Below the pieces are notes generated by a model. That model ran no database searches. It was not told the DNA's origin and was given only the letters and a program-made list of their open reading frames with translations. The translations under genes and the position numbers were made by a program. A DNA stretch of 64,000 nt from a virus. The DNA lies in IMG/VR virus record IMGVR_UViG_3300021961_000021. One strand, 5' to 3'. Positions 1,775 through 13,947 of this stretch are shown here, in pieces (position 1 is the first letter of the stretch; every line of letters begins with the position of its first letter).

Positions 1775-3052
1775 TTATCTCTGCTCCAACCAGTTCATTA
1801 CAGCAACAGCAGCTTTGTTTGTATTTGGTGCTGCACAAACCAGAGTGTAAATATCACTCACCGTTCCTAATTGACTTCTACCAAGTTGAAGTGCTGCTTT
1901 GGTATCAAGTTCAATCAAACTAGATCCACCACCGATAGTAAATCCTGCCAGTAGATTAGTGCCTCCAGTATAAGCAGTAGCACTAATATCATATTGGGTG
2001 ATAGTATCTGGATTTGATGGATTAGTCCAAACTGCTCCAGTAAGAGTCGGGTTTTCAACTAATCTCCAAAATACATTCGTGTTATCGTTCGTAGCAACCT
2101 GTAGAGATCTTGGGAGAACGATACCCTGAAGTGCTGTGGATTTGAGACGAATACTCAATACTGGATAGTAAGTATTAGCAGCTGTTAGTGTAGTGCCAGT
2201 AATAGCATTACCACGACTTACTAGAGTGCCGAGTTTCTCTGGTTCTCCTTCTTGAATAAGTGAGTTAGAACCCTGATAGAGATAGTGTGTTCCAGCAGCA
2301 CCACCAAAATTCTCAAGTTCACATCTGATTGGAAGGAATGGAGTAGCACACCAGACAGCGTGTTCTACGTTGGCATTATTGAATTTATGAATGATGTGGG
2401 TTTCTCCATCAATCACATAACTGAAAATAACTTGACCAGCACCATACCATTCGTAATCAATATTGATTAGGTGTTGAGCATCTGGATCTGCCGTGATCTG
2501 ACTAGGACCAGTGCCATCCAACTTATCACCATTCCAATCTGCTCTACCAACTCTTCTTTCTACTACAGAACCAGATGCTTTACTACGAATAACACAGTAG
2601 TAGTTTCCATCTCCACCATCCTCAAAGAATACACCATCGTTTTCGTTGAATACACCAAATCTTCTACGAACACCTGTTACTGGCATTTCCAAACGAATAC
2701 CAAAAGCACATTGGGTTGCTCTGCCAGGAATGTATCTCATCACAGTTCTGGTCTGTCGGATCACCTTATCTCCAACATTACTTCCAACTGACATAATCAC
2801 GTTAGAAGCATTTGGGTTGTGAGTTGCCGAAGCAGTGCCAGTTGTAGATGTATCCCAGTTATCAGTTTCTAAACCATACTGGAAAGTATTGAAGAATACT
2901 GTTTGATATGGGGATGTTTTCAATCTACTCTTTGATGTAAATTGAGGTCTCCAATCAGATTGCTCACCCCAGTGGTCAGCAAGCATTACTGTCTCAAATA
3001 AGGTTCTTTCCTGATTGAGAAAATCTTGATCTTTCTTATTCCAAATTGCCAT
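1775..3052 (-). CDS. 425-aa beta-rich hypothetical protein, probably virion-associated
   Basis: Long intact ORF rich in Thr/Gly/Val; no catalytic motif recognised. Confidence 0.7.
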   Translation of the reverse strand: MAIWNKKDQDFLNQERTLFETVMLADHWGEQSDWRPQFTSKSRLKTSPYQTVFFNTFQYGLETDNWDTSTTGTASATHNPNASNVIMSVGSNVGDKVIRQTRTVMRYIPGRATQCAFGIRLEMPVTGVRRRFGVFNENDGVFFEDGGDGNYYCVIRSKASGSVVERRVGRADWNGDKLDGTGPSQITADPDAQHLINIDYEWYGAGQVIFSYVIDGETHIIHKFNNANVEHAVWCATPFLPIRCELENFGGAAGTHYLYQGSNSLIQEGEPEKLGTLVSRGNAITGTTLTAANTYYPVLSIRLKSTALQGIVLPRSLQVATNDNTNVFWRLVENPTLTGAVWTNPSNPDTITQYDISATAYTGGTNLLAGFTIGGGSSLIELDTKAALQLGRSQLGTVSDIYTLVCAAPNTNKAAVAVMNWLEQR

Positions 3053-3055
3053 AAT

Positions 3056-3373
3056 TTATGCCAGATAAGGACCCTGATGGGTTACCTTTTTACTACTGGT
3101 GATATTTAGTGAATTACTGGTCCTGGCAATAGGATATACATTCTGAACGATTGCACCAGGATAGTCACCCTGAAGCATCTCTGTCAGTTGATTTCTGGTG
3201 GGGATCTCTCCTTCCTTCACCAACTCAATCTGGTAAAGTTCACCATTCCACTCAACATCAGCAGAATACTTTTCATCTACCTGCTGTTGCTCTGAGGAGT
3301 TGATGTAGAGGTTGCCGTTAAAGTCGCCAGAGATGTTGACGCTTTCGGATAGGAAATTCTTAAAGGATTTCAT
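3056..3373 (-). CDS. Putative internal head protein with N-terminal capsid-targeting-like sequence (true start MKSF at 3373)
   Basis: Begins MKSFKNFLSE, compared with T4 IPII/IPIII MKTYQEFIAE. Confidence 0.7.
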   Translation of the reverse strand: MKSFKNFLSESVNISGDFNGNLYINSSEQQQVDEKYSADVEWNGELYQIELVKEGEIPTRNQLTEMLQGDYPGAIVQNVYPIARTSNSLNITSSKKVTHQGPYLA

Positions 3374-3374
3374 C

Positions 3375-3719
3375 TTAACAATTCCAGGCTCTAAGGGACT
3401 TGGACAGACGATCATCGCCTGTGTTATTTTCGGGTTTCTGCCTCTTACGCATACCCTTCATCCTTGCACAGAAGGACTTACGACGAGGGTTACCAACTTT
3501 CTTACTAGGTGCCTTCAGGTCGCTACCAGGATTCTCACGCTCATAGGATTTGCGTCCTTTTTCGTTGAGACCACCTTCGGAGTTCTGTCCATCCTTCTTA
3601 GTCCAGGCAGCACCTTCCTTAACATCCTTCTCCCCATCCGACATAGGATGAGGATTGATTGCAGGTGTTTTCTCCTTTTTACGAGCACCTTCGGATATAA
3701 AGTCACTGAAAGATTTCAT
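3375..3719 (-). CDS. Basic putative internal head protein (C-terminal GGLN..G...RRKSFCARM module, possibly DUF6321-like)
   Basis: Begins MKSFSDFISE; Lys/Arg-rich. Confidence 0.7.
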   Translation of the reverse strand: MKSFSDFISEGARKKEKTPAINPHPMSDGEKDVKEGAAWTKKDGQNSEGGLNEKGRKSYERENPGSDLKAPSKKVGNPRRKSFCARMKGMRKRQKPENNTGDDRLSKSLRAWNC

Positions 3720-4465
3720 TTGTCTTTTTTGATTGCCTTGGCAATTCTGTGTGCTTTTGTAATTGTGGACTTTTTCAGGGGAGGAGTATCACCAGTAATG
3801 TCCTGTGCCTTTGCCATACCTATAGCATATGGATTGCGGGCTTCACCCATAGCAGCCTGCTTACGTTGCTTCTTAGGATTCTTAGTCCTATCCGCTGAAT
3901 ATGTATTCTCATCACGATCATCATCAGGGTCTATAGCAGCACGTTTTCTTGCTGCTCTATCATCATCGGTCATATTTGCACGACGAGACTGTGCTTCACC
4001 TGTAGAATAAGTTCTGCCAGTATTGTGCCATTCACTACCTTCGTGACCTCTCTTACGAGCATCAGCAGTAGCAGCTCTACGCTCATTCTTCTTACGATTT
4101 GCCTTGAACTGTTTGAGGGTCATTCCCTCTTCAAGATCATATTGAACTTCTTCTGGGAAAGGATTGCCAACAGTATGCTTTGCTTTCCTAGTCACTGTAT
4201 CGTGAGCAGAAATACTACGCATCTCTTTTTCTGCGTAGTCGCTACCTCGTCTTTTTGAATGCTTAGTTGTGCTAAGTTTGGGACCAGATTTTTTCTGACC
4301 GACCTTACCAGTCTTTCTCCAAGAATCTTCGGTTTCTCTTTCTGCGCGACGTTCGCGTGCAAGTTCGGCACGGTACTCATTGCCCTCAGTTTTTACATCA
4401 CAAATGCATTCTTTCTTTTTGCAGACCTTGCATTTCGATTCTTGAAATTCTCTGAATGTCTTCAT
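3716..4465 (-). CDS. Highly charged putative internal head protein with an N-terminal Cys cluster
   Basis: Begins MKTFREFQES, followed by CKVCKKKECIC; very Lys/Arg/Glu-rich. Confidence 0.7.
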   Translation of the reverse strand: MKTFREFQESKCKVCKKKECICDVKTEGNEYRAELARERRAERETEDSWRKTGKVGQKKSGPKLSTTKHSKRRGSDYAEKEMRSISAHDTVTRKAKHTVGNPFPEEVQYDLEEGMTLKQFKANRKKNERRAATADARKRGHEGSEWHNTGRTYSTGEAQSRRANMTDDDRAARKRAAIDPDDDRDENTYSADRTKNPKKQRKQAAMGEARNPYAIGMAKAQDITGDTPPLKKSTITKAHRIAKAIKKDK

Positions 4466-4605
4466 TTTTCCTGATTGTGCTTAGGGTTTGCAGGACAATT
4501 TTCTTCGTGTTTTTGAATCCACGAAAGCGGTCTCCAGTGCCCTCTAGGACTGGTCAACCCACAATACTTACATTCATAAGTGCCGTCTTCACGCAATTCA
4601 GCCAT
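4462..4605 (-). CDS. 47-aa zinc-finger-like micro-protein (not in ORF track)
   Basis: MAELREDGTYECKYCGLTSPRGHWRPLSWIQKHEENCPANPKHNQEK*: C-x2-C-x17-H-x3-C; overlaps both neighbours. Confidence 0.7.
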   Translation of the reverse strand: MAELREDGTYECKYCGLTSPRGHWRPLSWIQKHEENCPANPKHNQEK

Positions 4606-5284
4606 AATGGAATTTCCTATCTTTTGATTTAGCGGGCAGTTTGCCAGACCTTACTTTGGTTGATGAAGTCTCACCATATCCTTCAGGGTGCTTGCCTGCC
4701 TTAGTCTTACCGATAGCATCGGACGGTGATTTGCTACCCTTCTCGGTATAATGCAGTCTTGCTGGCTTGTCTTTGTCCTTTGTAATGACGGACTCTTGAC
4801 CGTGCTTACGACCAAGACGACGCATCACTTTACCAAAACGACGCTTGGACATCTTATCGGGTTTTGACGTGTGGTATGAAACCTCACGACCAGTCTCGCC
4901 ACTATCATACTTATATTCGCCCACACCTTTCTTGTGACCGATACCGTGCTTCTTGAGATCTTTCTCAAGACCTTTACGCTTGCTGCGGTTTGCCTTTTCA
5001 TCACTGCCACGGTCTGCAGAGATGTGACCAGTTACTTTTGTCTTGGACTTACTCATTGCACGAGCAAGACCACCCTCAGCAATAAAGGTCTTGAATGAAA
5101 GAACAGATTCTTGTTGGAGATTCATATCCATTGATGCGGGGGTTTTCATTGCAACATTTTGACGTTGCAATTGTAATTTCTTGATGTTCAGCATCAGTTG
5201 GCGGCGGTCAATATTTTGACGCTGCCTCTTGATCATATTGACCTTATTGTTTGATGCTGCTTGAGCGGACTGGTCTTCTGCCAT
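4598..5284 (-). CDS. SAM-lyase (T3 SAMase-like) domain protein with an internal capsid-targeting-like motif (start MAEDQ at 5284)
   Basis: ISADR...NRSK...GEYK...REVS...GQESVI...ARLHY aligns by eye with T3 SAMase VSAFR...NMSR...GCYR...EEKT...EQDCVL...AGLVY; SFKTFIAE at 5075-5098. Confidence 0.6.
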   Translation of the reverse strand: MAEDQSAQAASNNKVNMIKRQRQNIDRRQLMLNIKKLQLQRQNVAMKTPASMDMNLQQESVLSFKTFIAEGGLARAMSKSKTKVTGHISADRGSDEKANRSKRKGLEKDLKKHGIGHKKGVGEYKYDSGETGREVSYHTSKPDKMSKRRFGKVMRRLGRKHGQESVITKDKDKPARLHYTEKGSKSPSDAIGKTKAGKHPEGYGETSSTKVRSGKLPAKSKDRKFHYG

Positions 5285-5565
5285 TACTGCCTCGCTACTT
5301 TGGCACACTTGAGACCAGCACCATCGATGGTTTCCAGAGCATCTTTTTCAATGTACATTGTTTCGCCTGCGGCGATACTAATGTTTCTTGAACCTAGTGC
5401 TTTATATGTATCGGAACCACCACGTTCTGCAACAACAGCAGCATCATCTAAAATAAAAACAATGGTAGCTGCAGTGTCATTGACAACTCTCACGACAGTC
5501 GCCTTGTCAAGGTTAGTCGGGGTTGACAGAGTTACCTCTGTACCCATTACTCGTACTCTATACAT
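5284..5565 (-). CDS. 93-aa beta-rich hypothetical protein
   Basis: ORF track; directly downstream of a late promoter. Confidence 0.75.
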   Translation of the reverse strand: MYRVRVMGTEVTLSTPTNLDKATVVRVVNDTAATIVFILDDAAVVAERGGSDTYKALGSRNISIAAGETMYIEKDALETIDGAGLKCAKVARQ

Positions 5566-5588: not shown

Positions 5589-6047
5589 CTATTTATCACG
5601 CTGTGACTTTAAGAATTTGGCAAGATCTGCAGTGCTACCAACAAACATTGTGTTATTTGTGACGGTAGTTTGTGCGGCTCCCTTAGGACCAGTCTCAAGT
5701 TCCTGCATTTTCTTTTGCAAATCAATCAACTTATCAGTTGTATCTGCAACGTTTTTGATGAGATTACCAGCAACCTCGTATGCTCGCGGTGAATCTGATT
5801 GTTGGGATAACTCAAGAATACCGTCAATCGCTTCTTGTCCCTTTTCTATGAGACTGTAGAGCTGTCCTCTACTATATTCATAATCTTTTTGTACCTGTTC
5901 TCTGGTCGCAGGAACTACCTCAGATGAGGTGGATGGTTGAATAGCACCACCTTCATCTTCAACGATTTCGGTTTCAACATTGAGTGCATCCTCAATGCCA
6001 CTAAACTTATTCGTCGATGCCTGTGACTGGGTTTCTTGAGAGTCCAT
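5589..6047 (-). CDS. gp16: Terminase small subunit (start uncertain: ATG at 6047 or ACG at 6014)
   Basis: DYEYSRGQLYSLIEKGQEAIDGILELSQQSDSPRAYEV and NNTMFVGSTADLAKFLK; located directly after g15. Confidence 0.9.
   Translation of the reverse strand: MDSQETQSQASTNKFSGIEDALNVETEIVEDEGGAIQPSTSSEVVPATREQVQKDYEYSRGQLYSLIEKGQEAIDGILELSQQSDSPRAYEVAGNLIKNVADTTDKLIDLQKKMQELETGPKGAAQTTVTNNTMFVGSTADLAKFLKSQRDK
5590..5596 (-). promoter_or_regulatory. T4-type late promoter (ATAAATA) overlapping the gp16 stop
   Basis: GATAAATAG on the minus strand. Confidence 0.7.
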
Positions 6048-6804
6048 CTGTAAATTCACTATAAAGTTCATTGAATCCGAAGTCATCATCTGCGTCTGCC
6101 GTAATAGGATCGGGTTCGACAGTATAACGAACCTCCCTAGATGCAGTAGGTGCTGAGTCTGTAGCGTAATCGACAATAACCTTCTTGATGGTTTCGTCGT
6201 CTGCAGAAGATACAGGACCGTATAGATAAGTCTTAACAGTAAAACTCAAGGTGTAAATCAGAGTTCTTCTGGTAAGATAGTCTCCTTCGTAATCATCCTC
6301 ATAACTAACTGAGTTCAAAGTTACAGGAAAATCTTTCTTCTCACCGAGTTCTGGATTTAGTGTGAGTGTAATGTTTAGTGTTGGTTGAAAGAATGGTAGA
6401 ACTTGTTCTACAATTTGAAGACCATCATCTTGGTTCTTTGCAATAATAGCAACTTCAAAATCAACGTTATATGGGATCGGCATATATGCCTTTTTTATCC
6501 CATCTACAGTTACAGTTCTAACTACCTGAGTAGGTGAAACTTTTCTTGCAGGATCATATAGGAACCCACTAATTTCAAATGAAATTCTAGGAAGCGTAAT
6601 CTGCACAGCATCTTTCTCTGTGAGATCTCCTACTTGGCGAAGTCTTGCCAAGAATTTTTGTTTGGGACCATAAGCAAGAGGAACTTTTAACCATTCCTCA
6701 GTTCCTTTATCATTCTTCCTACGAATCTCAATGTTATTGAAAAGCGTACCGAAAGCAATTACGGTCTTCCTAAAAATTTCGTTGTAATAATAAGTTCCTA
6801 ACAT
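6007..6804 (-). CDS. gp15: Tail sheath stabiliser / tail completion protein
   Basis: YYYNEIFRKTVIAFGTLFNNI, KVPLAYGPKQKF, ITLPRISFE motifs; g13-g14-g15-g16 synteny. Confidence 0.93.
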   Translation of the reverse strand: MLGTYYYNEIFRKTVIAFGTLFNNIEIRRKNDKGTEEWLKVPLAYGPKQKFLARLRQVGDLTEKDAVQITLPRISFEISGFLYDPARKVSPTQVVRTVTVDGIKKAYMPIPYNVDFEVAIIAKNQDDGLQIVEQVLPFFQPTLNITLTLNPELGEKKDFPVTLNSVSYEDDYEGDYLTRRTLIYTLSFTVKTYLYGPVSSADDETIKKVIVDYATDSAPTASREVRYTVEPDPITADADDDFGFNELYSEFTDGLSRNPVTGIDE

Positions 6805-7670
6805 TACTGTGCTCCGCCAAATTCACCGAATGGATTGCCCTCAGTGAAATCTAGAAGTAGATCACCCTCTTCCTCAAAGAAGAGATTTTGATCGTATTCT
6901 GTGTTCGTATTATTTAGTGTATTGTAAGATGTGGTTGTCCAGGCAGCACCAGAATCTTGCCCAGTGAGTGTTTCTGGAATTGTGAAAATGCCAGTTCTGT
7001 TATAAACCTGTAGTTGCTTGGAAACTGGATCCCAGGACTTCACCTCAGCGGATACGTTTGAAGTGCCACCAACAACAGTTTCGCCAGGAGTAAAATCAAG
7101 AGTTCCGCCAGAGGCAAAATTGACAGTGATTGTGTTGGAGAGATTACGCTCGATAATGTCAATCTCTGGAACGCCTGTGTCAATCTTCTCATCGGAGAAT
7201 TCAAAGAGTTCGCATTTAAGACCCCATACGTGGATCTTACCCAATTGATAGAATGGTGTTTCGTGCTCAACAAACATAATCTTGAAGAGTTTTCCTGCCA
7301 AGGGGAAATACACTAAATCACCCTCATTGGGACGACCCTCAACAATTAGTTGAGCATTGTCATCCACTGCTTCAGTAAATCTTTGTCTTGATATAATAAA
7401 CGTTACCTGATCGCTGATGCGTACACCAAATTTACTGAATAGATCACCGTCGCCACCAAAACCATTTACATTTTCGATGTATGCTTCTATGGCATATGCA
7501 CCATCAAATGATGACAAGTTATCTTCTGTAAATAACGTGTCTTCATTTACAAGTCTTCGGGGCATATAGTAGATGTCTTTACCAAACATCTTGATCTGCT
7601 CAATGACTAAATCGCCAAGCAGATCTTGTTCGTTTGTTGTTCCTTGAGTAAAATAGGGATTGGTTGCCAT
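6804..7670 (-). CDS. gp14: Neck protein
   Basis: NPYF, EQIKMFGKDIYYMPR, PNEGDLVYFP, LKCELFEFSDE motifs; synteny. Confidence 0.93.
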   Translation of the reverse strand: MATNPYFTQGTTNEQDLLGDLVIEQIKMFGKDIYYMPRRLVNEDTLFTEDNLSSFDGAYAIEAYIENVNGFGGDGDLFSKFGVRISDQVTFIISRQRFTEAVDDNAQLIVEGRPNEGDLVYFPLAGKLFKIMFVEHETPFYQLGKIHVWGLKCELFEFSDEKIDTGVPEIDIIERNLSNTITVNFASGGTLDFTPGETVVGGTSNVSAEVKSWDPVSKQLQVYNRTGIFTIPETLTGQDSGAAWTTTSYNTLNNTNTEYDQNLFFEEEGDLLLDFTEGNPFGEFGGAQ

Positions 7671-7671
7671 C

Positions 7672-8466
7672 TTATCCGATCATATCCAGGGGTGGAAATT
7701 CGTAAGTGCTTCTGAGTTGCTCATCCAAACGAGTCAGTTCTTCAACTGCATCTGAATAGATCTTTTCGCCATTCAGTGTTACGCCGCCAGGCAGTTGTAC
7801 GTTCTGGAACTTGGTGAGGTTAGTGCCCCACTGTTTCTTGATCATTGCGGTGACGTAATCCTTAACCCACATTTCATTGTAGATCTTTGTCCAATTGACT
7901 GGATCTAAAGCACGAACACAGTCAATAACAATAAACTCACCTTCACGGATATCTGTCGATGCATCGAAGTCGATATACAAACGACCTTGAGTTGCCACAA
8001 ATCTTGTGGGTTTAGAACCTTCCAGCAAGAAGTTGATTGTTTCAAGATGCGTTTGAATCATATAGTAATGATAAAACTGAGTCGATGTAAAATCGAACAG
8101 GTCATTCAGTCTGAGTTGATAACGAATGTCAAACATATTTGAAGTACCTTTATCAACGAATGAAAAGATACCGTTGACACTACGAATGTGATCTGGCAGT
8201 GTCAAATAATTGTTCTGTGTCTTAAAATCTGTGCTGCCAACAGTTTCTGTGGTATCAGACTTGAATGCAGCAATTTCTGACTGAGTGAATTGGTGCTTGA
8301 GATATACTCTCTCTGCACCACCGTAGTGAAATTCTTGGAACTTTTCGATTGTGTAATCGATTGCATCGTCAACCTGTTCGTCGGAGACGTTAATCTCCAG
8401 AACAGGTTTACCTAAACGACGCAAGCAATACTCTTTAAGTTCTGATTTGGATGTTGGAGTTGCCAT
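7672..8466 (-). CDS. gp13: Neck protein / head-tail adaptor
   Basis: LKEYCLRRLGKPVLEINV, WVKDYVTAMIKKQWGTNLTKF, LPGGVTLNG motifs; synteny. Confidence 0.95.
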   Translation of the reverse strand: MATPTSKSELKEYCLRRLGKPVLEINVSDEQVDDAIDYTIEKFQEFHYGGAERVYLKHQFTQSEIAAFKSDTTETVGSTDFKTQNNYLTLPDHIRSVNGIFSFVDKGTSNMFDIRYQLRLNDLFDFTSTQFYHYYMIQTHLETINFLLEGSKPTRFVATQGRLYIDFDASTDIREGEFIVIDCVRALDPVNWTKIYNEMWVKDYVTAMIKKQWGTNLTKFQNVQLPGGVTLNGEKIYSDAVEELTRLDEQLRSTYEFPPLDMIG

Positions 8467-11400: not shown

Positions 11401-13947
11401 GTAGGTGAGACCAGCAACATTCAGAGTACCTTCAATATCGGTATTGCCATTTGTGCTGCTAACAACAAACTTATCACTTGCACCATTGGTAAGTTTGAAG
11501 ATTTTACCAGTAGTGTCAATTGTGAGGTTATTGTGGAGAACCGTATTTCCATCAACATCCAGAGTGCTATTGAGTGTAGTAGCACCATCTACATCAAGGG
11601 TAGAATCGAGAGAAGTTCCACCAACAACATTCAATGTACCTTGGGATACAGTATTACCAGTATTACTTGCTACACTAAACTTAGTCTGGAGGGAACCATT
11701 CTTAATTAACAGATTCTGTCCAGCACCATCAATAACGATGCTACCATTCGTTTGAATAACTTTATTGTTGAACTGATACAAATCACCCCAGATTGAGGTG
11801 TTGCCATTTGCACTATCAATGTAGAATACATTTGTAGTTCCATTATTGATACGGAACCACTGAGTTGCTGCAGTCAGATTAAAGCTACTTGCCAGGTCCA
11901 TACGACCAGCAAAGTTTGATGTACCGCCAACCCAGAGGTTTTGACTAATTCCAGTACCGCCAGTAACAACCAGAGTACCTGAAGTTGTAGAAGTAGAACC
12001 AGTATTGGTTGTTAATCTGAGGTTACCTGCAATCAACGGAGCATCTGTACCGCTGAAAACTTCGTTGGTATTTGCTGCGTTATAGAGGAAACGATAACCA
12101 CCAGTACCAGACCAGATATTACTATCGGCATAGTCTTCATCCCAACCAAAGAATCCAAGACGTGCCTGAGTATCATAATAACGAATCTCAACACCACGGT
12201 CCTTATTGTCATCAACGGTAGGAGCAGTGTCTCCTCCCAAAGTGATGATCGGATCATCGACGGTAATTGTTGTTGAGTTTACTGTTGTAGTTACGCCATC
12301 AACTTGGAGGTTACCACGAATTTGAACCAATCCTGTTGCAGCATCATCGTCACCAGGATCAAGCACCATTGTGGCATTGCTTGTACCAAGAACATTTTCT
12401 TGGAAGTAAAAGTCTTCTACCTGAACTTTTGCATTGACATCTGTTGAGGTGATGACGATACCATTGTCAGCAGTGATATTGAGGGTGGCAGTACCAGCAC
12501 CAGCGTTGGTACTAACAATGTCAAAAGTTCTATCTGTGGCTGAATTGACGTTATGGAAAATCTTGAGTGATCCAGCAGTGCGCTCAATAGTTTGGAGAGG
12601 ACTTGTGCCAGGACGATCCAGCACGATATTGGCACCACTGATGTGAGTATCAACGTTAATATCAACCCCACCACTGCCAGAGTTATCAACGTTATTAGCA
12701 GTAAATAGAAGGTTCCCAGAAGTATCATTGACATAAATGTAATTCAGATAATCAAAACCGTTGTGGGCATTTGCGGCTGTGAGTTCATTATCAAGTTCAA
12801 ATTCCTGAGCAGTATTTCTGTCAGTGAAGATAATTCTGTTATTTTGGAGTTGACGATTATCAACACCTGCTGCAGCAATGGTAACGTGACCATTTGAGTC
12901 AACATCAAAGTCTTCTTGTGCAAATGATGCAAGACCTTTCTGTTCGGTGAGTGCAGCACCCAGATATCTCCAACTGCCAGTGTCACTGGAATCCGTATGC
13001 GAAGGAGCACCCAGACCAGCAGAAATATCTAGCAGTGCCTGATATACACCAGTGCCAGTTTCAATGATATCGTATCTGCTGTAGGTTGCACCTGCACTAT
13101 ATGCTGCATACTTAGAACCTTCAGTTGCTGTTGCGATAGGTATCGTAAGAGCATATGTCAGACGACCATATCTGTCAACGGTAAATTTGGTTGCATTGAC
13201 AGTTTGAGAACCTGTACCCGATGAGGTCAGGGACTCTACGTTATATGAACCGACAACAACTGCCGTGTCAGCAAGGTCGATAAACGGGTTGGCATTAACA
13301 CCGTCAGCGTTTGTGAAGATGATGCGACCAGCACCACCAGTAAGGGTTCTTGTGAGGATGCTTCCCTGAGAGGATCTTGACAGAAGACCCAGTGTTGTCA
13401 GAGTGGCAAGACTTGTCAGATCACTATCTAAGGGTTGCGCATCAGTAATACCATAGTCCGACAGGGTTGATGCAAGTTGAGCGCCAATGACTCTACCTCT
13501 AGAGTCTACTTGTACGAGAGAATATGTGCCAGTAGCTTCTAGATCATTCGGATTATAATGTGGAAGTGATGGAATAACTTCCAGGTTTGTTGCGAGGTTG
13601 AGGTTTGCAGAACCATCAAAAGAACCAGATGCAGTAATAGAACCAGTTAATTGAATCTGACGTGCGTTTGCCAGACGGGTTGCAGTAGAAGCGTTACCAA
13701 TCAATGTGGCACTAATTGCACCCGCTTCAAAGTTACCGTCAGCGTCACGCTTAACTAGAGTGTTAGCAGCGTTGGTTTCGGTCTCAAGTGGTCGCTCATA
13801 CCTGAGAGAGTTCCACGGAGTAACACCGTCACCGATCTTAATACGCGACGTATCGATTTCGATTCCGAGTTCGCCTTGTGCCAGAATTGGGTTGATGTTC
13901 GCCCACTGCTGAGCACCATCACGTCTTAATTGGATTCTATTTGCCAT
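8473..13947 (-). CDS. Long tail-fibre / fibre-like virion protein (1824 aa)
   Basis: N-terminus IQLRRD..QW...NPILAQGELGIE.DT.RIKIGDG..PW resembles the Mtd_N-type fibre anchor; repeated FTV.S.TGNT.IAGTL.V units; a duplicated DDP.ITLGGD...DRG.E.RYY...GFFGWDE module; occupies the wac position before g13. Confidence 0.85.
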   Translation of the reverse strand: MANRIQLRRDGAQQWANINPILAQGELGIEIDTSRIKIGDGVTPWNSLRYERPLETETNAANTLVKRDADGNFEAGAISATLIGNASTATRLANARQIQLTGSITASGSFDGSANLNLATNLEVIPSLPHYNPNDLEATGTYSLVQVDSRGRVIGAQLASTLSDYGITDAQPLDSDLTSLATLTTLGLLSRSSQGSILTRTLTGGAGRIIFTNADGVNANPFIDLADTAVVVGSYNVESLTSSGTGSQTVNATKFTVDRYGRLTYALTIPIATATEGSKYAAYSAGATYSRYDIIETGTGVYQALLDISAGLGAPSHTDSSDTGSWRYLGAALTEQKGLASFAQEDFDVDSNGHVTIAAAGVDNRQLQNNRIIFTDRNTAQEFELDNELTAANAHNGFDYLNYIYVNDTSGNLLFTANNVDNSGSGGVDINVDTHISGANIVLDRPGTSPLQTIERTAGSLKIFHNVNSATDRTFDIVSTNAGAGTATLNITADNGIVITSTDVNAKVQVEDFYFQENVLGTSNATMVLDPGDDDAATGLVQIRGNLQVDGVTTTVNSTTITVDDPIITLGGDTAPTVDDNKDRGVEIRYYDTQARLGFFGWDEDYADSNIWSGTGGYRFLYNAANTNEVFSGTDAPLIAGNLRLTTNTGSTSTTSGTLVVTGGTGISQNLWVGGTSNFAGRMDLASSFNLTAATQWFRINNGTTNVFYIDSANGNTSIWGDLYQFNNKVIQTNGSIVIDGAGQNLLIKNGSLQTKFSVASNTGNTVSQGTLNVVGGTSLDSTLDVDGATTLNSTLDVDGNTVLHNNLTIDTTGKIFKLTNGASDKFVVSSTNGNTDIEGTLNVAGLTYFENVDEPTISTDANNYFIIVSSDYGAFRYAGGGYVEGNTLFNSDVYINGALNQRDQGTATETFSTQNYLRVRYKLRAGSSIAYTPSYAQDDNSNLRVYGGAGVATDLHIGDNLYIGRKTSGTDPYDFHVQGTTGNTIIGRSGFGTASAGTLTVYGDTTLDRNLYVNGNTEIGNASSDTLVVDATSTFNANVTLAAGQNLTVGGNAIVDGNLTVHGTTTTVNSTVMTIDDPILTLGGDTAPTTNDAKDRGIEFRYYSGGAARLGFFGWDESAGRFALFNAATNASEVFSGTRSGIDAGSIKLFDTTNSSSSSTGSLIVGGGAGIGLQLYVGTNLFVGGTAAITGATTMSSTLDVSNDFKVNTNKFTVASATGNTAVAGTLSVAAATTLSSTLNVTGNTSITGTLGVSAATTLNSTLAVTSNTTVGGTLGVTNATTLSSTLGVTGVTSITNASQASTTGSYSGDGALRVTGGGSVGGNWVVGGNLKVYGDAIYDGDINYAGTQTYTGKVRFNNTSDAVSATSNNVSVFSAGGLAVTKKAYIGDDLDVGAGKFTVDGPTGDTAITGTLGVTGASSLSSLSLSSSATFASSLTLGGNLAINTDKFTVASTTGNTVIAGTLNVSGSSTVGTLTASGAVTFNGANTVSLSNSGAYFSNSGLTRLMNASDSTGYNNTSASLFVNGGASIVKRLNVGGNFMVGGSAGVKATILAASGNFSTSGTLAVTGGATIGGTLGVTGQITGNVTGNLTGTADNSDLVGVLNTTTSNLTYYPTFVSATSGYTEIRTDSDNLRYNPSTNTLQVSNFTCSTNFEVQGNLNITGTVTYNESQVGDISNHNTDALAEGTTNLYFTQTRSRESISATGSLSYNNQTGVISYTAPTLAAVATSGAYSDLSGTPTISAFGATLIDDTSASAARTTLGLGTAATTNSTAYATAAQGTAADDTNSDLTALYSALNAIGNNATITTVAQLKAALAALVRP

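Follow-up and report, generated by a model that had tools for sequence, protein, structure and literature searches.

What do several small and otherwise dissimilar genes have in common that lie between two genes for virion proteins in a T4-like ocean cyanomyovirus? The question is raised by positions 3056-5284 of IMG/VR virus record IMGVR_UViG_3300021961_000021, a DNA stretch of 64,000 nucleotides (nt) that is referred to here as the window; the closest sequenced relative is Synechococcus phage S-SZBM1, with ~79% nucleotide identity over part of the region. Four open reading frames (ORFs) of this cassette carry a short tag resembling the capsid-targeting sequence of phage T4. An original prediction, made from the sequence alone, took their products for a swappable set of packaged and injected proteins. 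Here we present a computational analysis of the cassette and of related loci, genomes and virion proteomes. Our preferred reading, to which we assign a probability of about 0.65, is that M-K-(S/T)-(F/Y)-x-x-F-(I/L/M)-x-E is a T4-type leader for capsid targeting and protease processing, borne by a mosaic set of proteins that serve as head cargo.

The four copies of the tag were found on the minus strand, as were all window genes named below, at the sites where the original prediction had placed them. ORF105 (3056-3373) begins with MKSFKNFLSE (3344-3373), ORF114 (3375-3719) with MKSFSDFISE (3690-3719) and ORF249 (3716-4465) with the variant MKTFREFQES (4436-4465), the starts being at 3373, 3719 and 4465, respectively. 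ORF228 (4598-5284) most likely starts at the ATG at 5284, which shares bases with the stop codon of the gene before it. Its tag is internal: SFKTFIAE occupies residues 63-70 (5098-5075), within VLSFKTFIAE (5075-5104), behind a helical N-terminal extension of 62 amino acids (aa). In a six-frame scan of the whole 64 kb the pattern M[KR][ST][FYW]xx[FYW] was restricted to the three cassette starts, and no further tagged genes came to light when every ORF start of the window was scanned with a relaxed pattern. A DNA pattern back-translated from M[KR]x[FY]xxF[LIMF]xE matched twice in the window and in none of 100 shuffled versions. Synonymous differences among the four copies indicate that the peptide and not the DNA is conserved, and a DNA-level repeat as the origin of the shared leader is thereby ruled out. 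Once the motif is removed, sequence comparison finds no similarity among the four proteins, the tag being their sole shared element. The original remark that most of them are strongly Lys/Arg-rich holds for three of the four: ORF228, ORF249 and ORF114 are basic (isoelectric point (pI) 9.9-10.3, with 9.9 for ORF249; Lys plus Arg 24-25%), and ORF105 is acidic (pI 4.7).

The T4 capsid-targeting sequence is MKTYQEFIAE (PMC8442874), and the T4 genome record confirms that ipII and ipIII begin with it. In IPII and IPIII (and IPI) the gp21 prohead protease is described as cutting the leader (Mullaney and Black 1996 as reviewed in PMC9026906; PMC8442874). T4 genetics links targeting to residues 4 (aromatic) and 7 (Phe), and processing to residues 8 (Ile or Leu) and 10 (Glu). 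The positions conserved in the cyanophage tags are those important in T4 (PMC9026906), which upholds the claimed likeness. Phe occupies positions 4 and 7 at the N-terminus of ORF105, ORF114 and ORF249, and ORF228 has the same spacing internally. The predicted (I/L)-x-E processing site is present as L-S-E in ORF105, as I-S-E in ORF114 and as I-A-E in ORF228, where cleavage is predicted after Glu70 (codon 5075-5077); it is missing from ORF249, in which Glu stands at position 9. The F-Q-E variant of ORF249 also occurs inside the virion-detected protein S-SM1_115. When the proteins were compared with T4 IPII and IPIII by BLASTP, matches were limited to the first 10-17 residues. The four proteins would thus be IP-like in working but stand outside the IP protein families.

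The maturation site of T4 gp23 is L-T-E65 followed by Ala. Its counterpart in the aligned gp23 of S-SM1 and S-SZBM1 is I-L-T-E, so the hydrophobic-x-Glu specificity of the protease is likely kept in cyanophages. The proteins gp21 and gp22 are present in the relatives S-SM1 and S-CREM2; the window covers none of gp21, gp22 and gp23. On the whole T4 genome the DNA pattern matched ipII, ipIII and gp61.1. The latter (NC_000866 18966-19130) is an uncharacterised protein of 54 aa from the primase region that starts with MKTFKEFIKE, close to the capsid-targeting sequence.

A motif scan across the g16-g17 regions of cyanomyoviruses had been set beforehand as a check, and the motif was indeed concentrated in this locus. 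In 83 gp16-anchored loci, which are related to each other and whose counts are therefore not independent, 33 occurrences of the general motif, whether N-terminal or internal, fall within 91,819 aa of ORFs up to 5 kb downstream of gp16, as opposed to 0 in 155,585 aa upstream. The strict N-terminal motif on the coding strand was found 14 times, in every case 0.5-3 kb downstream of gp16, with 0 occurrences in 494 kb upstream. In the relatives the motif often lies within long basic polyproteins, exactly at module joints. S-SZBM1_194 (707 aa) carries ITYREFIAE immediately ahead of a module resembling S-adenosylmethionine (SAM) lyases; in Syn9 gp114 the sequence LTFQQFQEK precedes a C-terminal part ending in the domain DUF6321, and S-SM1_115 has LSFQDFQEK at the same place. 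In the window phage such polyprotein modules are encoded by separate genes, every one of which has a leader to itself. The locus is mosaic and, as originally predicted, swappable. Several tagged proteins, at this and other loci, have a short Cys-rich knuckle right after the tag, such as CKVCKKKECIC in ORF249 (4400-4440).

Run over both strands of five complete cyanomyovirus genomes (885 kb), the DNA pattern gave seven matches, all of them in g16-g17 cassette genes or at the N-terminus of a cytidylyltransferase/NMNAT; S-SCSM1 gave two, of the same two kinds. All six phages examined have the tag at the start of their cytidylyltransferase/NMNAT, one copy being a residue shorter: P-SSM4 (MKKFSAFLKE), S-SM1 (MKKFSAFLNE), Syn9 (MKKFSAFLSE), S-CREM1 (MKRYTNFLSE), S-SZBM1 (MRFRQFIIE) and S-SCSM1 (MKSFLQFLKE). 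It was looked for in the 64-kb window and not found. The enzyme also starts with the tag in S-CREM2, whose genome has exactly three pattern matches when ATG, GTG or TTG starts are allowed: the 'SAM hydrolase' gp6 (MKDFDSFLEE), the kinase gp14 and the cytidylyltransferase gp154. The tag is portable across unrelated domains, and in six complete cyanomyovirus genomes its pattern is restricted to the cassette locus and to known virion enzymes.

Tagged relatives of the cassette proteins are present in particles. All three S-CREM2 pattern matches belong to the virion proteome, which comprises 52 of 219 ORFs (PMC10665884), with 19 unique peptides for gp6, 21 for gp14 and 3 for gp154; the chance of such an outcome is ~0.013 by a hypergeometric estimate. 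The looser S-CREM2 matches gp12 (tag at residue 18), gp13, gp15, gp136 and gp137 were chosen post hoc, and all are virion-detected. Two of them are the two genes after gp16, where gp136 starts with MQTFSMFFSE and gp137 ends in DUF6321. The cytidylyltransferase/NMNAT was reported from virions of S-SM1 (25 counts; PMC3037559 Table S8), S-SZBM1 (PMC9146016 Table 1), S-SCSM1 (PMC9602691; RefSeq note) and S-CREM2 (PMC10665884 Table 3), and DUF6321 polyproteins were detected in those of S-SM1 (13 counts), S-SCSM1 (gp029) and S-CREM2 (ORF137). The S-SCSM1 virion list (45 proteins) was read from RefSeq notes, and that of S-SZBM1 comprises 30 proteins; the list of 14 proteins from S-CREM1 is uninformative. 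The original prediction of packaging is thus matched by virion-detected relatives in the DUF6321 and SAM-lyase-like families, two of the four cargo families, and not in the ORF105 family. The authors of the S-CREM2 study reported virion-carried NMNAT and SAM hydrolase and suggested their entry into the host (PMC10665884).

The S-CREM2 genome also contains a cluster (OR473000 3837-13331) of virion-detected non-structural proteins, namely a SAM hydrolase, a Cas9-like nuclease, an APH/ChoK-like kinase and two small ORFs, all of them tagged or with a near-variant of the tag. This cluster adjoins a DNA methylase and an EcoRI-like endonuclease gene.

Among the cargo, ORF114 consists of the tag, a spacer of 34 aa and DUF6321 (Pfam PF19846; ~3384-3587), which scores 80.8 bits versus a cut-off of 28.5 (E 1e-22). 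DUF6321 corresponds to the 'structural protein' family T4-GC119 (Syn9 gp114, S-SM1_115), and the 1332-nt Syn9 entry of Table S8 matches gp114; in that source T4-GC119 is named just structural or hypothetical, with no mention of a targeting signal (Sullivan et al. 2010, PMC3037559 Table S8). The leader as an integral part of DUF6321 is ruled out, as the spacer varies from 0 to ~85 residues and podovirus DUF6321 proteins have no leader. The lack of a leader in podoviruses fits a leader specific to the T4-type prohead core. In T7-like cyanophages and pelagiphages (P-SCSP1u 11536-11790; pelagiphage Lederberg_55) DUF6321 is a stand-alone, leaderless basic protein of 83-84 aa, and in P-SCSP1u its gene directly follows the major capsid gene.

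ORF228 contains a basic SAM-lyase-family domain at aa 88-197 (4694-5023). It scores 31.8 bits for Pfam PF23780 versus a gathering cut-off of 28 (E 1.6e-7), and most of its homologues carry PF23780. The virion-detected S-CREM2 gp6 scores 70 bits for the same family and matches ORF228 by BLASTP with E 2e-10 and 37% identity over 140 aa. With a structure model of ORF228 (pLDDT 67.7), Foldseek placed 6zm9 (E 6e-4) and 6znb (E 1e-3) at the top, 7ock and 8bb1 close behind and T3 SAM lyase among the top matches; TM-scores are only 0.35-0.60, for a fold (ferredoxin-like, PII-like) that is common. The residues G122-x-Y124, E134 and Q163-E164-S165 are invariant in the ORF228 family and, mapped by inspection, resemble G56/Y58/E69/Q104-E105-S106 of Svi3-3 in order, with similar spacing. 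Of these, Gly56, Tyr58, Glu69, Gln104 and Glu105 are conserved substrate-binding residues of Svi3-3 (PMC7877911). Among 120 homologues of ORF228 the tag, whether N-terminal or internal, stands ~26 aa before a conserved SADRG. An hhalign comparison of the ORF228 family with T3 SAMase gave no alignment, and a PDB sequence search with ORF228 and its family profile gave nothing relevant. A SAM-lyase activity of ORF228 is plausible.

ORF105 has an acidic beta-beta-alpha-beta domain and belongs to phrog_1742, a family of >1,200 proteins that nearly always start with MK(S/T)(F/Y)K.F(L/I/M)SE; Glu stands at position 10 in 116 of 120 homologues. Its model (pLDDT 64.5) has no significant structural match. 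The best, weak matches of its core are T7 Gp2 and the Gp2-like YkzG, both RNA polymerase binders, which is a lead only; T7 Gp2 (Foldseek E 0.1) was rejected as a structural match, being too weak to use. ORF249 comprises the variant tag, the Cys-rich knuckle and basic modules common to the S-SZBM1_194 polyprotein, of which it matches the N-terminal part; no Pfam or PHROG family was found for it. Embedded in the cassette is ORF47 (4462-4605), a small, untagged Cys/His zinc-ribbon-like ORF of 47 aa whose start and stop overlap its neighbours and which is conserved as S-SZBM1_193. A PDB sequence search with ORF105 and ORF114 delivered nothing relevant, PADLOC gave no defence-family match, and a protein atlas search returned only the own families of the query proteins.

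From these observations the following course of events can be proposed. The cassette would be transcribed late, together with the flanking virion genes. We infer that the tag would bind the scaffolding core, so that the protein becomes enclosed in the prohead, that a gp21-type prohead protease would cut after the Glu of the hydrophobic-x-Glu site, and that the mature protein would stay in the head of the window phage with the DNA. The cargo would then comprise three basic proteins, namely one with DUF6321, one resembling SAM lyases and one of modular build, together with a small acidic protein. In relatives the same modules form a single polyprotein whose joints carry the tag, which would serve there as the cutting site. 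As a further step we infer that the cargo may be ejected with the DNA and may have an early counter-defence role, for example the removal of SAM against SAM-dependent restriction or BREX.

Several observations weigh against this reading. The main negative evidence is that homologues of ORF105 (S-SZBM1_191, S-SCSM1 gp030) are absent from the S-SZBM1 and S-SCSM1 virion lists, in which their neighbours are listed. S-SZBM1_192 and S-SZBM1_194, which carry DUF6321 and the SAM-lyase-like module, are also absent from the S-SZBM1 list of 30 proteins, and the DUF6321 family was undetected in the virion proteomes of Syn9 (gp114) and S-SZBM1. All particle evidence comes from the published proteomes of relatives, and the proteome authors noted that abundant non-structural proteins could co-purify with virions (PMC10665884). 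In ORF249 F-Q-E is followed by Ser, with Gln at 8 and Glu at 9 rather than 10, which makes an atypical processing site. In the ORF105 and SAM-lyase families the tag stands at a fixed distance from the domain and might, in any single family, belong to the fold. On T4 the pattern misses ipI and hits gp61.1, no known head protein, and is thus a specific but imperfect classifier.

The alternatives are each less likely than the capsid-targeting reading. According to the first, which we regard as unlikely, the tagged proteins are accessories of the prohead core or scaffold that are targeted into the prohead and afterwards degraded and expelled like T4 gp22, gp67 and gp68, or serve as DNA condensers only, and are assembly parts and not effectors. 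The absence of tagged cassette proteins from the S-SZBM1 virion list and of ORF105 homologues from that of S-SCSM1 agrees with this, as do further L-x-E sites in ORF105 and basic low-complexity modules that resemble DNA- or scaffold-binding filler. However, the SAM hydrolase, kinase, cytidylyltransferase and DUF6321 polyproteins persist in mature virions with many peptides, and folded enzyme domains are improbable as scaffold filler.

The second alternative, to which we give little credence, holds that the motif is unrelated to the capsid: a short amphipathic helix would be reused in another role, such as partner binding, stability or the context of the translation start, or would be spread by module shuffling, and the proteins detected in virions would be abundant late products carried over. 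The motif is just 10 residues long, T4 gp61.1 has it in a replication-gene cluster, and contamination was acknowledged as possible by the proteome authors. Against this stand the conserved positions, which are those driving targeting and processing in T4 genetics, the detection of all three S-CREM2 pattern matches in virions, the leaderless cargo domain of podoviruses, which have no T4-type core, and the 0 matches in 155,585 aa of structural ORFs.

The gene order around the cassette bears on its time of expression. Upstream it is anchored by the terminase small subunit gp16 (5589-6047; Pfam DNA_Packaging and phrog_445; start at 6047 inferred), preceded by gp15 (6007-6804), gp14 (6804-7670) and gp13 (7672-8466). 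Downstream it is flanked by the gene for a virion structural protein of 425 aa (1775-3052; phrog_1645, E 1e-190), whose homologue S-SZBM1_190 was found in virions (S-SZBM1 proteome, PMC9146016). With virion-protein genes on both sides, the cassette genes are tightly packed start-to-stop, with several overlapping ATGA or TAATG junctions. The late promoter that had been predicted at 5590-5596 is there as the heptamer ATAAATA, a core like that of T4 and cyanophage late promoters, which lies over the last gp16 codons and 25-31 nt ahead of the start of ORF93. As a lone site it is plausible but weak, the bare heptamer being unenriched in the window (10 found versus 13 expected). Nine of the 10 copies are on the coding strand, and another copy lies just upstream of the big fibre gene. 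The third alternative takes the four for ordinary anti-defence genes of the early or middle phase, expressed after infection, whose likeness to the T4 tag is coincidental. It finds some footing in the SAM-lyase-like fold predicted for ORF228 and in T3 SAMase, which is described as the first gene expressed, made after infection and unpackaged (PMC8406200), but is very improbable in view of the late structural module, the start-to-stop overlap with virion genes, the upstream ATAAATA, the S-CREM2 homologue in virions and the finding of no sigma-70-like promoters or terminators above chance within the cassette.

ORF93 (5284-5565), the untagged first gene after gp16, is a homologue of S-SZBM1_195 by sequence comparison. 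That protein (87 aa) ranks third in abundance among the virion proteins of S-SZBM1 by exponentially modified protein abundance index (emPAI), behind capsid and portal (PMC9146016 Table 1). In other cyanomyoviruses the gene at this position is T4-GC403, ~177 aa, with 60 peptide counts. ORF93 is possibly a capsid decoration or internal protein. At the other end of the region, an open-ended ORF at 1-165 of the window matches the SNase-like endonuclease T4-GC228 (PF00565), the gene just before gp17 in P-SSM4 and S-SM1. Because of this order in those two phages, gp17 probably lies just past the window start.

The g15-g18 hyperplastic region was already known (Millard 2009 as cited in PMC2984593), and full-text literature searches found no paper linking the capsid-targeting sequence to cyanophages. 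With its mechanism known from T4, the capsid-targeting reading is an extension and not a new principle. Several groups have reported enzymes such as cytidylyltransferase/NMNAT, SAM hydrolase and kinases from purified cyanophage particles, along with many unknown proteins, and could not decide between cargo and contamination; a conserved T4-like address tag offers a mechanism, and it allows head cargo to be predicted from sequence by a simple rule in one of the most abundant groups of ocean viruses. In its light, part of the g15-g18 hyperplastic region, which has mostly been viewed as a site of metabolic genes, can be seen as a cargo cassette, and the tag suggests a route for loading foreign proteins into cyanophage heads, as practised in T4. 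A wider proposal is tentative, and we hold it at less than even odds: the portable ten-residue tag may pre-load changeable counter-defence and takeover proteins (a SAM lyase, in relatives kinases and enzymes of NAD salvage, and small proteins like ORF105) that are injected before phage transcription, and the g16-g17 hyperplastic region may be the main place where they are shuffled, as single tagged genes or as protease-cut polyproteins.

Several known systems can be compared with the cassette. T4-GC119 (Syn9 gp114, S-SM1_115) shares with ORF114 the C-terminal DUF6321 and the position right after gp16, whereas the window phage has this polyprotein split into separate genes, each with its own leader. 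ORF228 resembles phage SAM lyases (T3 gp0.3, Svi3-3, PF23780) in its Pfam score above the cut-off, its top Foldseek matches and its G-x-Y...E...Q-E-S residues; the relation to T3 and Svi3-3 is very distant, however, and ORF228 is strongly basic, with an internal tag behind the 62-aa extension. The S-CREM2 'SAM hydrolase' gp6 (PMC10665884) begins with the tag and is homologous to ORF228. The giant phages SPN3US and phiKZ likewise load their heads with many unrelated cargo proteins that are cut at x-x-Glu by a gp21-related protease, but their propeptides are mostly long (>100 residues) and lack a ten-residue consensus (PMC5694885). With the T4 internal proteins the cyanophage set has in common the ten-residue leader (aromatic residue at 4, Phe at 7 and, in all but ORF249, Ile/Leu at 8 and Glu at 10), cargo made up largely of small basic proteins without mutual relationship, a variable and swappable gene set, and a phage family with gp21, gp22, gp23 and the conserved L-T-E maturation site. 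It differs from them in that the genes lie beside gp16 and not at the T4 ip loci, similarity is limited to the leader, the leader also occurs within long polyproteins at module joints, and the cargo has enzyme-like domains, of the SAM lyase family here and of cytidylyltransferase and kinase in relatives.

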